Shown here piece after piece: positions 26,327 through 31,163 of a stretch of 64,000 bases of DNA. How positions within the stretch are numbered: the stretch's first letter is position 1; each line of letters begins with the position of its first letter. Location: positions 54,104-118,103 of the forward strand of contig JAKOXV010000018.1 in assembly GCA_029780855.1 (NCBI GenBank), given 5' to 3'. The notes beneath the pieces are model-generated. The model searched no databases and was not told where the DNA came from. It worked only from the letters and a program-made list of their open reading frames with translations. Both the position numbers and the translations under genes were made by a program. Origin of the DNA: a bacterium. GTDB lineage: Bacteria > Patescibacteriota > Saccharimonadia > Saccharimonadales > JAUPVS01.

Positions 26327-26539
26327 CTACACCAATACACTTAACAGTATGGAGAGCGAAAAAATAATCGCAAACACAATAGTAATTTGATGAAGTGTCT
26401 TATCAGTACCTCTACGTACCGTGTTTACTTCACCGCCACTACCGAGGCCTGCGCCCAAGCTAGCACCACGCGTCTGGACCAGGATCAGAATTGTCAGTAT
26501 CACCATGGACACGAGTGTTATGTAGTTAAAAATGTTCAT
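26327..26539 (-). CDS. secG: Preprotein translocase subunit SecG
   Basis: 70 aa with two TM helices and the central loop LVQTRGASLGAGLGSGG, characteristic of SecG. Confidence 0.8.
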   Translation of the reverse strand: MNIFNYITLVSMVILTILILVQTRGASLGAGLGSGGEVNTVRRGTDKTLHQITIVFAIIFSLSILLSVLV

Positions 26540-26901
26540 CGTTCCTCCAAAATAGTTGTCACTAGATAGTTTACCAACCCAATGACCATACCGGCAAGCA
26601 TGGCGACCCAGAAGTTCTTAACCTGAAGCTGCGTGTAGAGGTGACTAGCCAGGAGCACCATAAGACCATTTATAACAATCATAAACAGACCCAGACTAAA
26701 TAAAATAGCCGGTAAAGACAACACGATAACGATTGGCTTAATGATTGAATTGATTATTGCCAGCACTAATCCGGAAACCACAATAACGCCCAGTTTACTG
26801 CCGTAGTTAATACTCTCGCTCCCGAGTAGGCTAGCGGCGATCCATAAACCCAAACCGCTCACAAACCAACGAATAATAAATCTTCCGATTGCGCTGTTCA
26901 T
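26536..26901 (-). CDS. Four-TM membrane protein of the YvlD / holin superfamily IV type
   Basis: RWFVSGLGLWIAASLL...IINSIIKPIVIVLSLPAILFSLGLFMIVINGLML matches the Phage_holin_4_2-like pattern. Confidence 0.65.
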   Translation of the reverse strand: MNSAIGRFIIRWFVSGLGLWIAASLLGSESINYGSKLGVIVVSGLVLAIINSIIKPIVIVLSLPAILFSLGLFMIVINGLMVLLASHLYTQLQVKNFWVAMLAGMVIGLVNYLVTTILEER

Positions 26902-28187: not shown

Positions 28188-29690
28188 CTATGGTTTGCTT
28201 GTCCGAAGATATTGCGACACAATCGCAGCTTTTTGTTTGCCGATTACCCGGCTCAGATCCCACTCACTAGCGTGACTAACACTCCTCATTGAACCAAACG
28301 AACGGAGCAGCTTTTTGCGCGTAGCCGGGCCAATTCCGGGAATATCATCTAGCAAGCTTGCTGTTTGGCGCTTAGTTTTTAGCACCGAATGGTAGCTTAC
28401 AGCAAAGCGGTGTGATTCATCGCGGATTCGCTGCAAGAGCTTCACAATATGTGAACTTTTGGGAAGCAGAACCCGTATGTAGCTATCATCCTGAGTCAAT
28501 ATCGCATTGTTTTTAGCAGCATAGTCCCTGTTGAGCATGACGCTGGAAGCGTCCCGGGAAATCACAATTTCCTCCTCTCGCTTAGCTAGACCAATCATAG
28601 GGAGCTTGGAAAACCCAGCAGCGTCACGGGCTTCTATGGCACTACTTAGTTGCCCCTTTCCTCCGTCAATCAGAAACAGGTTGGGCAGACCCCAATCTTT
28701 CCGGTTTTTTTCACCAAGACGGCGAGTAATCGTTTCATTCATGTGAGCGAAGTCATTATTGCCCGGAAGGCGCATTTTAAATTTTCGGTACGCAGCTTTG
28801 TCCGGTATACCATTGGTAAAAACCACCATACTGGCAACGTTATCCGTTCCGCTCATGTGGCTGATATCGTATCCCTCTACCCTGCGAGGTGTCTCGGAAA
28901 GTCCTAGGAGTTCCGCTAAACCTTGCAGTCCAAGGTCCTTACTGATGTCCATAAATTCTTTGTCAGAAAAAACTACCTGTTTGCTCAGCCCCTTGATCGC
29001 AAACAGCTGGTTCCGTAGATGCACCGCATTCTCAAAGTCTTGGGATTTTGAAGCTTTAATCATGTCTTTTTCAACTTCACGTATCAGTTTGCTTCTTTCT
29101 CCCCGGAGGTATTGCATGAGCTTACGGAGGTTTTTGCGATATTCTTGCAATTCGGTTTTGTTTTCCTCTAGTCCAGGGCAGAGCCCAAGATGATACTGCA
29201 AACAGGCACGCTTGGGAATATTGCGGACGTGCGTAGAGTAAGGAAATGCCCGGCGCAAATAGTGCAACGCTCGTCTAACTGCACCAGCAGCAAAGTATGG
29301 TCCAAAATATTCTGCTCCATCATCCAGCGGACGGCGAGTTACCGTTACCGTGGGATGATTACTTTTATAATCTATTCGCACGTAGGCCGTACTCTTGTCA
29401 TCGCGCAGCAGGATATTGTACCGCGGCAAATAGCGACGCACTTGTTCGGCTTCTAAAAATAGTGCGTCTATTTCACTATCGACCGTTATCCACTCAATGT
29501 CTGCAATCTCCTGTACGAGCGCATCGGTTTTTGGGTCTCTATACCGGCTTGCCTGAAAATACTGTCGAACACGATTACGCAAATTAGCAGCTTTGCCAAT
29601 GTAAATAATCTGCCCCTTTTTGTCTTTATGAAAATAGACGCCGGGATCTTTGGGAAGTTCGCTCAACTTTTTTTCTAACTGCATATTCAT
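28188..29690 (-). CDS. uvrC: Excinuclease ABC subunit C (short, 500 aa)
   Basis: GIY-YIG N-terminus GVYFHKDKKGQIIYIGKAANLRNRVRQYF, an RNase H-like endonuclease region (EGYDISH), and a C-terminal HhH IPGIGPATRKKLLRSFGS. Confidence 0.9.
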   Translation of the reverse strand: MNMQLEKKLSELPKDPGVYFHKDKKGQIIYIGKAANLRNRVRQYFQASRYRDPKTDALVQEIADIEWITVDSEIDALFLEAEQVRRYLPRYNILLRDDKSTAYVRIDYKSNHPTVTVTRRPLDDGAEYFGPYFAAGAVRRALHYLRRAFPYSTHVRNIPKRACLQYHLGLCPGLEENKTELQEYRKNLRKLMQYLRGERSKLIREVEKDMIKASKSQDFENAVHLRNQLFAIKGLSKQVVFSDKEFMDISKDLGLQGLAELLGLSETPRRVEGYDISHMSGTDNVASMVVFTNGIPDKAAYRKFKMRLPGNNDFAHMNETITRRLGEKNRKDWGLPNLFLIDGGKGQLSSAIEARDAAGFSKLPMIGLAKREEEIVISRDASSVMLNRDYAAKNNAILTQDDSYIRVLLPKSSHIVKLLQRIRDESHRFAVSYHSVLKTKRQTASLLDDIPGIGPATRKKLLRSFGSMRSVSHASEWDLSRVIGKQKAAIVSQYLRTSKP

Positions 29691-29750
29691 GCACTCTACA
29701 GTATAGCTCTCTACCCCTGTTATTGAAAGTTACGAACATTTCGGAATTAT

Positions 29751-30199
29751 GAGGACGCGTGCGAAGAAGAGCTGGGGGTGGGGGTTGTTACTAGGGTGCA
29801 CTCATTTCCGAGTACCACTTTTCACGAACCCCCACCGGCTCACAGCTTGTTCGACTTGCGCAACTCGTGGTGGACGTAGCCCGCCGAAACCACAAGAAGG
29901 ACGATGATCAGCGCCGAAGCACCGACGATGCCTGCCGCTTTAACTCCTTCGAGTCGCTCGGGGTTCTCATTGATGAACTCCAAGCGGCTGTTGAAGTAGT
30001 AGACGCACACTCCCACGGGGATTGCGACGCCGAGGAACAGCAGGATGTAGGTGATGGTCTTTGCCTTGTTGCTCATTTGCACAGCTCCTTGGTCTTTTGC
30101 CTACGATTGATTGCCGGCAATGGTTCGGGAATGAAGTCGGTTCCGCCCGCTTCTTATGAGACCCCTTAACCAACCAAGGTGGAAAACGCACGCGTCCTC
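29751..30199. other. High-GC (about 55-63%) 449-bp insert bounded by perfect 13-bp inverted repeats
   Basis: GAGGACGCGTGCG at 29751-29763 and its reverse complement CGCACGCGTCCTC at 30187-30199. Outside these, ATTTCG(G) (29738-29744) faces CGAAAT (30200-30205). Hand counts of 60-nt lines give 55-63% GC inside, against about 37-43% in the flanks. Confidence 0.6.
29840..30082 (-). CDS. Small two-TM membrane protein encoded in the high-GC insert (80 aa)
   Basis: TITYILLFLGVAIPVGVCVYYF and GIVGASALIIVLLVVSAGYV are the two TM helices. G/C-ending codons are strongly preferred, unlike the surrounding genes. Confidence 0.6.
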   Translation of the reverse strand: MQMSNKAKTITYILLFLGVAIPVGVCVYYFNSRLEFINENPERLEGVKAAGIVGASALIIVLLVVSAGYVHHELRKSNKL

Positions 30200-30278
30200 C
30201 GAAATATACATAACTATCTCAGTGCTTTACGTGAGGGTTACCCCTTGACGTAACAGCATTATTATAGCATAAGCTTAA

Positions 30279-31163
30279 CTATTTTGCAATAGCTTGAGTT
30301 GTTACGCAATCGGTGCACAGGTCTTTATTGGCACAGTTTTCGCAGACGAGAACAAGCCGATTACATGCGACATTGGCGCAATTTTCATAGTTGCTGGTTT
30401 TTCCATTGCAGTGGACGCATTCACCAATGTCTTTGGATTTTTCTGAAAATCGCTGGTTCATACGGCCATCAAAAATATACAGAGAACCTTCCCATAACCC
30501 TTCATCGCCGTACTTTTCACCATACTTTACAATTCCACCGTCCATCTGGTAGACCTCTGTAAAACCTTTCTCCTTCATAATAGGAGTTAAGATTTCACAG
30601 CGCACGCCACCCGTGCAATAGGTGACTACCGGTTTATCCTTAAGTTCATCGTACTTACCGCTATCAATTTCTTTTACAAAATCATGTGTAGTACGAGTAT
30701 CTGGAACAACTGCATTTTTGAACTTGCCTACCGCAGCTTCGTACGCGTTCCGGCCATCAAAGAACACCACATCTTCACCGCGTTCTTCCATGAGTTTATG
30801 TAGTTGTTCGGGCTTGATATGTTTGCCGCCGTTTTTTACTCCATGCTCGTCTACTTGTATGGCGTCAGGAGCACCGAACGCCACCAGCTCCGGCCGTACT
30901 TTTACTGAAAGTTTCGGGAACTCATTACCCGTTCCATCACTCCACTTATACATAATCCCTTTGAATATAACTGAGCGATTCATCTCACGTTTATATTCAC
31001 GAAGATTCTCAATATTCCCGCCAAGCGTGCCGTTGATGCCGTGTTTGCTCACAATAATTCGACCTTTGAGATGTAAGCGCACACATAGCTCTCGCTGCCA
31101 GCGCATAGTCATCTCTGGATCGGCCACCGGAACAAATTTGTAGTAAAGGATTACCTTATTCAT
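30279..31163 (-). CDS. trhO: Rhodanese-domain tRNA uridine(34) hydroxylase TrhO (UPF0176/YceA family)
   Basis: MNKVILYYKFVPVADPE...KGRIIVSKHGINGTLGG, the rhodanese active-site loop YCTGGVRCE, and a C-terminal Cys cluster CVHCNGKTSNYENCANVACN. Confidence 0.85.
   Translation of the reverse strand: MNKVILYYKFVPVADPEMTMRWQRELCVRLHLKGRIIVSKHGINGTLGGNIENLREYKREMNRSVIFKGIMYKWSDGTGNEFPKLSVKVRPELVAFGAPDAIQVDEHGVKNGGKHIKPEQLHKLMEERGEDVVFFDGRNAYEAAVGKFKNAVVPDTRTTHDFVKEIDSGKYDELKDKPVVTYCTGGVRCEILTPIMKEKGFTEVYQMDGGIVKYGEKYGDEGLWEGSLYIFDGRMNQRFSEKSKDIGECVHCNGKTSNYENCANVACNRLVLVCENCANKDLCTDCVTTQAIAK

Follow-up and report, generated by a model that had tools for sequence, protein, structure and literature searches.

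A patchily distributed Saccharimonadales module with a small membrane protein and a predicted panhandle mRNA between trhO and uvrC

A repeat-bounded, GC-rich segment at the trhO-uvrC locus

The subject of this analysis is a short segment between trhO and uvrC in a 64-kb stretch of a Saccharimonadales genome (contig JAKOXV010000018.1, positions 54,104 to 118,103; this whole stretch is called the window, and positions are counted from its first letter). The minus-strand gene order is trhO, ORF78, uvrC, where ORF78 is an open reading frame (ORF) for a small protein. The segment is delimited by an inverted repeat with the core GAGGACGCGTGCG at 29751-29763 and its perfect 13-nt reverse complement at 30187-30199, exactly where the original prediction had placed them. 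The symmetry extends beyond the core, also as predicted: positions 29725-29745 and 30198-30218 are 81% complementary, and the 7-nt indel that had been noticed in the left flank is GAATTAT at 29744-29750. A 13-nt inverted repeat by itself is near chance level in 64 kb, a caveat with which we agree. A chance origin of this repeat is excluded because the same repeat, compensatory changes included, recurs in homologous elements of other genomes.

The jump in guanine-cytosine (GC) content at the repeat boundaries, originally estimated by hand, is confirmed by computation. The 449-bp repeat-bounded segment has a GC content of 56.1% compared to 38 and 37% in the remaining intergenic flanks and a mean of 46.4% in the 64-kb window (SD of 3.0 for 449-bp windows). 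The highest value among all 449-bp windows, 56.3%, is found at 29753, so the insert is effectively the GC-richest part of the stretch. Sliding-window and codon calculations likewise identify the segment as a strong composition and codon outlier. For the minus-strand ORF at 29840-30082, the expected preference for G/C-ending codons and the two transmembrane (TM) helices were both recovered. Its likely start is the ATG at 30076, with AAGGAG located 8 nt upstream, which yields a product of 78 amino acids (aa), as in the public annotation (P0001). The GC content of ORF78 at codon positions 1, 2, and 3 is 56, 33, and 80%, respectively. The third-position value (GC3) of 49 host ORFs is 45.1 ± 3.6%, with a maximum of 52%, and no 79-codon window of a host gene exceeds 62%.

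Hydropathy analysis places the TM helices of ORF78 at about residues 7-28 and 45-68, between a basic N terminus and a basic C-terminal tail. The AlphaFold model is a helical hairpin (pLDDT of 76), for which a Foldseek search of PDB returned only generic hairpins (E ≥ 0.8). No family match above threshold was obtained in Pfam, PHROGs, NCBIfam, or PADLOC. Only the self-match was returned by a word-indexed search of 5.8 billion protein clusters and by an exhaustive phmmer search over 1.84 billion representatives; overall, no homologue was found among ~15 billion proteins. Pattern and tblastn scans of 185,579 species genomes and viral contigs detected no relative of ORF78, tblastn against phages gave no match, and the segment itself had no blastn match among phages or plasmids. 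Exact look-up of the ORF78 sequence retrieved no contig; that of TrhO did.

Opposite ORF78 lies a 100-aa acidic ORF (29867-30169, plus strand) whose GC content peaks at codon position 1, not 3. Such an ORF is what normally mirrors a hydrophobic gene rich in GC3, and not a second gene. Gene callers could pick this antisense ORF, so hiding the true ORF78. A comparable antisense ORF lies opposite the two-TM ORF of the related contig L030, which is described below.

Copies and empty sites in related lineages

In the closest relatives of the window, whose TrhO proteins are 83 to 86% identical, uvrC starts 1 to 24 bp after trhO. In a survey of ~60 related loci, many trhO-uvrC spacers measured −7 to 48 bp. 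The empty-site comparison suggested along with the original prediction thus finds trhO directly before uvrC in close relatives and supports the view that the segment is an insertion relative to them. About a quarter of the informative loci contain unrelated lineage-specific inserts of 92 to 2828 bp.

Four Saccharimonadales lineages carry the element at this junction: The copies in the window and in loci L053 and L030 are full, and the copy in L059 is partial. In L053 (TrhO P0008, 80% identical to that of the window), the gene order is the same, the 5′ block is identical over 40 nt, and the ORF encodes 64 aa with two TM helices and a GC3 of 0.65. L030 is a JGI metagenome contig whose TrhO and UvrC are 76 and 78% identical to those of the window. 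Its 40-nt block is 92.5% identical to positions 30173-30210, and its layout matches throughout: outer and core arms, an untranslated region (UTR) of ~120 nt, a two-TM ORF, a hairpin with G/C runs, and an A/T-rich 3′ insertion between the core and outer arms. The L030 ORF encodes about 103 aa with two predicted TM helices and has a GC3 of 0.79. The fourth copy is cut off by the end of the L059 contig (TrhO P0013), a Logan contig that stops exactly within the 5′ core arm (L059 1400-1422) and so carries the 5′ part only. The long inverted repeat may break short-read assemblies, and the element may be under-represented in public assemblies for this reason. Presence of the element is patchy even over short distances: The TrhO proteins of L054 and L053 are 93% identical, yet L054 lacks the element, with TAA-N24-ATG and a single TATAAT at the empty site.

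When a covariance model was made from the window sequence only, it retrieved L053 with 65.6 bits (E = 2e-13) and L030 with 24.7 bits (E = 0.003), and it had no further match in 53 sources. Viral contigs gave no match to the conserved 5′ block. Exact scans of genome, viral, and metagenome collections for two cores separated by a gap of 393 to 423 nt returned zero hits because the pattern is too strict; other copies differ in spacing or have imperfect cores. BLASTP comparison of the window, L053, and L030 ORFs gave nothing significant, and the L030 ORF has no relatives either. A short FLG...C-x-[YW]-Y stretch in TM1 hints at common descent.

Since the source is a metagenome-assembled genome and the L059 contig breaks inside the repeat, one may ask whether high-GC reads were joined into the contig as an assembly chimera. 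The identical sequence is present in an independent Logan assembly, however, and homologous elements occupy the same junction in unrelated samples. We therefore regard the chimera as a practically negligible explanation.

The copies also bear on the age of the element and on the origin of its composition. Between the window and L053, nucleotide identity is 74% in trhO and 69% in uvrC. Within the element, it is 90% in the 5′ block, 66% in the rest of the 5′ UTR, 64% in the 3′ UTR, 77% in the 3′ arms, and about 52% in the ORF. By these values, the divergence of the element is no less than that of the host genes, and its RNA ends are more constrained than its protein. Across copies, its GC content is 52 to 56% compared to 29 to 38% in the flanks, and the GC3 of the ORFs (0.80 in the window, 0.65 in L053, and 0.79 in L030) compares to 0.40 to 0.45 in host genes. 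For two of the coding regions, predicted folding is better than that of shuffles preserving both protein and codon usage (z = −2.2 and −2.8). On the strength of the old divergence, the GC-richness of every copy, and the better-than-shuffle folding, we read the GC content as a selected property of a structured mRNA and not as the signature of a donor. These results suggest that selection for RNA structure best explains the high GC and GC3.

The original prediction had proposed a recent horizontal transfer from a high-GC donor, for instance an actinobacterial host. A GC content of 56% and a GC3 of 80% in a genome of 46% GC, the sharp boundaries of the segment, and the empty sites of relatives all agree with that proposal. 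Yet the search for donor relatives that was meant to check it found none in protein databases, 185,579 species genomes, phages, or plasmids, and none of the collections searched yielded a relative, whether by protein or by DNA. Three further Saccharimonadales copies lie at the same site with a divergence comparable to that of host genes, the same GC anomaly recurs in every one of them, and the ORFs fold better than synonymous shuffles. A recent transfer is thus quite improbable. Three separate captures at one site from an unseen high-GC pool would be a less economical explanation.

The trhO-uvrC junction is in itself a hot spot for lineage-specific genes, as seen in the spacers of L011-L052. 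The inserts include an MFS transporter together with a DUF1697 and a PNPOx-like gene (L011/L060), Q/P-rich proteins of ~420 aa (L025, L027, and L028), and ORFs without assigned function. The inserts in L043, L051, L023, and L016 were considered as candidates and rejected as not being repeat-bounded relatives of the element. Elsewhere in the window (26536-26901 and neighboring positions), a Phage_holin_4_2-family gene followed by secG lies just downstream of an M24 peptidase gene, an arrangement kept in several relatives (L001, L004, and L008).

Layout and predicted folding of the module

The conserved unit extends beyond the repeat. The whole module covers ~590 bp, roughly 29700-30290, and all of its features described below are given for the minus strand. 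It begins with its own predicted strong sigma-70-type promoter (30261-30289; 10/12 matches) composed of a −35 hexamer TTGCAA at 30284-30289, a 17-nt spacer, and a TG-extended −10 box TATAAT at 30261-30266. The −35 hexamer sits within the last trhO codons, which read A-I-A-K-stop. The same TG-extended TTGCAA-17-TATAAT promoter is located upstream of the element in L053 and L059, while L030 has TTGACA-17-TAAAAT (11/12 matches). Between the predicted transcription start and the panhandle helix that is described below lies a small predicted hairpin (30227-30253), and hairpins are found at the equivalent place in L053 and L030.

The AT-rich 5′ outer arm, GATAGTTATGTATATTTCGGA (30198-30218), pairs with 29725-29745 in minimum-energy and centroid folds. 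The 5′ core arm, GAGGACGCGUGCG (30187-30199), can form either a local hairpin, P1, or a 13-bp long-distance helix. The structured 5′ UTR of ~120 nt (30085-30200) has a predicted fold consisting of P1, a three-way junction, and a second helix, P2, and leads to ORF78 (29840-30076). It is followed by a 3′ hairpin (29777-29836) with a 10-bp G-run/C-run stem, GGUGGGGGUU/AACCCCCACC, and a structured 40-nt loop. The original prediction had recognized this stem but had located its second arm at 29818-29827; the arm is at 29827-29836. Equivalents of the hairpin are present in L053 (GGTGGGGGT..ACCCCCACC) and in L030. Next come the 3′ core arm, CGCACGCGUCCUC (29751-29763), which is a perfect complement of the 5′ core arm, and an asymmetric 7-nt A/U-rich internal loop on the 3′ side, between the core and outer helices (29744-29750), which corresponds to the "indel" mentioned above. 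L053 and L030 have A/U-rich loops of 5 to 10 nt at the matching place. The 3′ outer arm, in the CCGAAAUGUUCGUAACUUUC region (29725-29743), pairs with the 5′ outer arm. In total, the mutually complementary 5′ and 3′ arms are 32 to 39 nt long.

A second −10-like box, TATACT (29700-29705), is located 9 nt upstream of the uvrC ATG (29688-29690) and is the probable native promoter of a near-leaderless uvrC. In L053, CTATAAT is present on each side of the element, and the box on the uvrC side is probably the native promoter of that gene. In relatives that lack the element, TATAAT lies ~6 to 7 nt before the uvrC start, with no Shine-Dalgarno (SD) sequence in between. The uvrC-proximal boxes map to 29688-29710 in the window, 4885-4905 in L002, 4885-4912 in L004, 2023-2044 in L007, and 2056-2083 in L054. 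This arrangement suggests that uvrC mRNA is leaderless or near-leaderless in these Saccharimonadales.

When 121 TrhO sequences were compared, the C terminus A-I-A-K-stop was found only in the element-bearing P0002, P0008, and P0013. In L030, a 63-aa ORF splits trhO from the element, yet the relic AGCATTGACAAAATAG stays attached to the promoter. The A-I-A-K-stop or relic sites are located at 30279-30293 in the window, 3880-3894 in L053, 1330-1344 in L059, and 953-969 in L030. Given the confinement of A-I-A-K to carriers and the relic in L030, the promoter and a replacement trhO terminus thus seem to belong to the unit; gain of the module may replace the 3′ end of trhO. The 63-aa ORF of L030 (763-954) itself encodes two TM helices and has sub-threshold similarity to the PLDc_N domain (E = 0.64).

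In the predicted fold of the 5′ UTR, P1 is a 5′ hairpin formed by 30193-30200 and 30181-30188, and P2 (30172-30179 with 30087-30094, CCUUGGU/ACCAAGG) closes the three-way junction. The 3′ strand of P2 masks the first 4 nt of the SD sequence AAGGAG (30085-30090), and it does so in all three full copies, with compensatory changes in the helix. When the UTRs of the window, L030, and L053 were folded separately, the same P1, three-way junction, and SD-covering P2 were predicted each time. In a model-guided alignment of the UTRs, pairing extends to 93.5% of cells, and compensatory changes are seen in 12 of 38 pairs, a count that comes from three sequences fitted to the model. None of 500 shuffle controls reached the observed pairing, and slid controls gave 0 to 3 pairs. 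We consider the UTR covariation supportive, not conclusive. RNAalifold applied to a plain MAFFT alignment missed the shared UTR fold, which was recovered by the single-sequence folds and by the covariance model.

Folding of the full-length RNA, taken between the predicted start and the 3′ outer arm, yields a panhandle in both the minimum-energy and the centroid structures of all three full copies (z-scores of −5.9, −6.4, and −7.4). The helix that closes the panhandle is the inverted repeat, with its outer and core parts separated by the asymmetric A/U loop. Cognate arm duplexes have predicted energies of −44 kcal/mol in the window and −39 kcal/mol in L030, compared to −28 and −30 kcal/mol for window/L030 cross-pairs. 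The outer-arm changes relative to L030 include two compensatory pairs, and where the 5′ core arm of L030 has one A more, its 3′ core arm has one U more. Two partners compete for the 5′ core arm, the adjacent CGUUUUCC (in P1) and the distant 3′ core arm, and pairing with one excludes the other; the anti-SD strand of P2 adjoins this arm. These overlapping constraints (P1, pairing with the 3′ core, and anti-SD) would explain why these 40 nt are the best conserved part of the element. Rfam searches gave no match at E ≤ 1 in the element region, the only matches in the window being tRNAs, and only a chance miRNA match on L030.

An inverted repeat whose arms change together could also mark the ends of a miniature transposable element that is moved by a trans-acting transposase and carries the small ORF as a passenger. 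The repeats do bound the element, its presence is patchy with empty sites in close relatives, and the CTATA(A/C)T box found on both sides in the window and L053 could be a degenerate duplication. Other features do not fit. No direct repeat adjoins the core or outer arms in the window, L030, or L053, the only flanking repeats being the −10-like boxes 30 to 50 nt away. Conservation peaks in the core and inner 5′ arm and fades toward the outer tips, the opposite of what transposon ends show, and the 3′ end is far less conserved than the 5′ end. All four copies are single and occupy one locus in one orientation, and no second copy is present within the 64-kb window. Conservation also continues outside the repeat, as far as the promoter and trhO terminus. 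Miniature inverted-repeat transposable elements (MITEs) of the Correia, RUP, or ERIC type are likewise short, bounded by inverted repeats, and absent from the same site in relatives. Unlike them, the module has a real ORF together with a promoter and a structured UTR, has no target-site duplication at its ends, and is a single-copy element at a fixed locus. On this balance, we consider a transposable element unlikely.

The same repeat, which in the window is perfect over 13 bp and flanks a ~420-bp segment between a promoter and uvrC, might instead serve as an invertible DNA switch that a site-specific recombinase flips, thereby changing how the small ORF or uvrC is expressed. A single orientation is seen throughout, in the four copies as well as in two assemblies of the source sample, the core repeat of L030 is imperfect at the DNA level (10/12), and no recombinase gene is seen adjoining the locus. 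Because of the constant orientation and the imperfect L030 core, such a switch is very improbable.

Several known classes were considered from the sequence and rejected: an integron attC site, as the core sites do not match; a retron, as no reverse transcriptase gene adjoins the element; a riboswitch, as the junctions are variable; and a LexA box, as there is no GAAC-N4-GTTC motif.

Possible modes of action and meaning

The feature is more organized than the original prediction supposed, and we infer each functional step proposed for it. Compensatory changes preserve the arms and UTR helices across the copies, whereas the proteins are no longer recognizably similar in sequence. We consider it about an even chance that the element is an old, patchily distributed Saccharimonadales module in which a panhandle mRNA gates production of a membrane-active peptide in the manner of a type I toxin mRNA. 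The inverted repeat would then act mainly at the RNA level. During transcription, the 5′ core arm would pair first as the local hairpin P1, and P2 would close the three-way junction, hiding the start of the SD sequence. Once the 3′ arm is completed, the long 5′-3′ helix would shut the whole mRNA into a compact, stable, and poorly translated panhandle. The peptide could then be translated only after the mRNA is refolded or processed, perhaps through a cut in the A/U-rich internal loop or by ribonuclease III (RNase III), so that a membrane-active product would be placed under a gate of the hok or aapA1 type.

In the type I toxin class, the hydrophobic peptide is typically poorly conserved and occurs patchily at a fixed intergenic site. 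Descriptors of type I toxin mRNAs are anti-SD helices that sequester the SD sequence, 5′ stem-loops that form early, 3′ stem-loops, and 5′-3′ long-distance interactions that close the completed transcript (PMC8594479; see also PMC5416894 and PMC6733600). As in hok/Sok of plasmid R1 and aapA1/IsoA1 of Helicobacter pylori, the module combines a small hydrophobic membrane protein with a compact, highly structured mRNA. Its predicted anti-SD helix, 5′-terminal hairpin, 3′ stem-loop, and 5′-3′ locking helix have counterparts in these systems; a 5′ arm with two alternative partners is consistent with sequential folding. The RNA elements of the module are well conserved and its protein is poorly conserved, again with patchy occurrence at a fixed intergenic site. 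Unlike in hok or aapA1, the panhandle is much longer (32 to 50 bp), the host is a bacterium of the Candidate Phyla Radiation (CPR), and there is no sequence or Rfam similarity.

Several points weigh against the comparison with toxin mRNAs. Module proteins of 64 to 103 aa with two TM helices contrast with the usual type I range of 20 to 60 aa, usually with one helix, and module mRNAs of about 480 to 540 nt contrast with the usual 150 to 400 nt (PMC8594479). No antisense antitoxin RNA is evident, and no sigma-70-like antisense promoter was found in L053 or L030. The 3′ hairpin has no clear U-tract. All RNA structures of the module are predictions, the covariation count derives from three sequences in an alignment fitted to the model, and transposon ends, too, would be expected to have complementary, co-varying arms. 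A GC3 of 80% may be more than selection for RNA structure can explain by itself. The known copies number only three full ones and one partial one.

In the window only, an inward sigma-70-like site, TTGAAA-16-AATTAT, is present at 29723-29750 on the plus strand; promoter rules in CPR bacteria are uncertain. This site is partly created by the 7-nt GAATTAT insertion, and an RNA starting from it would be antisense to the 3′ UTR.

The structural evidence that underlies the panhandle reading also underlies a different one, in which the small membrane protein is non-toxic, the flanking helix is an RNase III-type processing or insulating stem, and the 5′ UTR merely tunes translation. Such a stem would excise and stabilize the small mRNA and separate the module from expression of uvrC. 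Processing stems of rRNA and of phage T7 R1.1 are classical RNase III sites. The module shares with stems of the rRNA operon and the T7 R1.1 type the long complementary flanks, a helix of 30 to 50 bp, and an asymmetric internal loop; it differs in that the stem encloses the mRNA for a small membrane protein and that its cleavage is putative. The fact that uvrC retains its own −10 box beside the start codon and that no antitoxin was found agrees with this reading, whereas the faster evolution of the protein than of the UTR and the patchy presence and absence among close relatives are left unexplained by it. We consider this reading, the main rival of the folding-gated one, possible but rather unlikely.

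A further comparison concerns the composition of the region. GC-rich intergenic regions (GC-IGRs) in AT-rich genomes are the basis of searches for new RNA motifs. The module resembles such motifs in that its intergenic region is unusually long and GC-rich, with a GC content that would reflect RNA structure. Unlike GC-IGR motifs, its region also contains an ORF; there is no Rfam match, and the junction and loops are too variable for a ligand-binding aptamer.

Returning to the folding-gated reading, we consider the chances about even that the structural description holds and that the module works like a folding-gated toxin mRNA; we do not file it as a type I toxin-antitoxin system. Our more specific proposal is tentative: The module may be the first type I toxin-like folding-gated module in the CPR, with the 40-nt block switching between P1 and the panhandle, and may spread or be lost by recombination at the trhO 3′ end, carrying with it the replacement A-I-A-K-stop and the promoter. 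The family is new and rare, with four known copies, and no published description of it was found. The literature search found no work linking Saccharibacteria with type I toxin-antitoxin systems or MITEs, and the T1TAdb paper does not mention Patescibacteria (PMC8594479).

Saccharibacteria and other CPR bacteria have tiny genomes, and few regulatory RNAs are known in them. A conserved element whose RNA is more constrained than its protein is unexpected in a CPR genome; it would be notable in this setting and would offer a testable example of control by RNA folding in an epibiont. For scans of genomes, the module also carries a caution: Where GC jumps sharply and GC3 is high, selection on mRNA structure can be the cause, and a foreign donor need not be involved. 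For the epibiont itself, the product would perhaps be a selfish or stress-linked membrane peptide.

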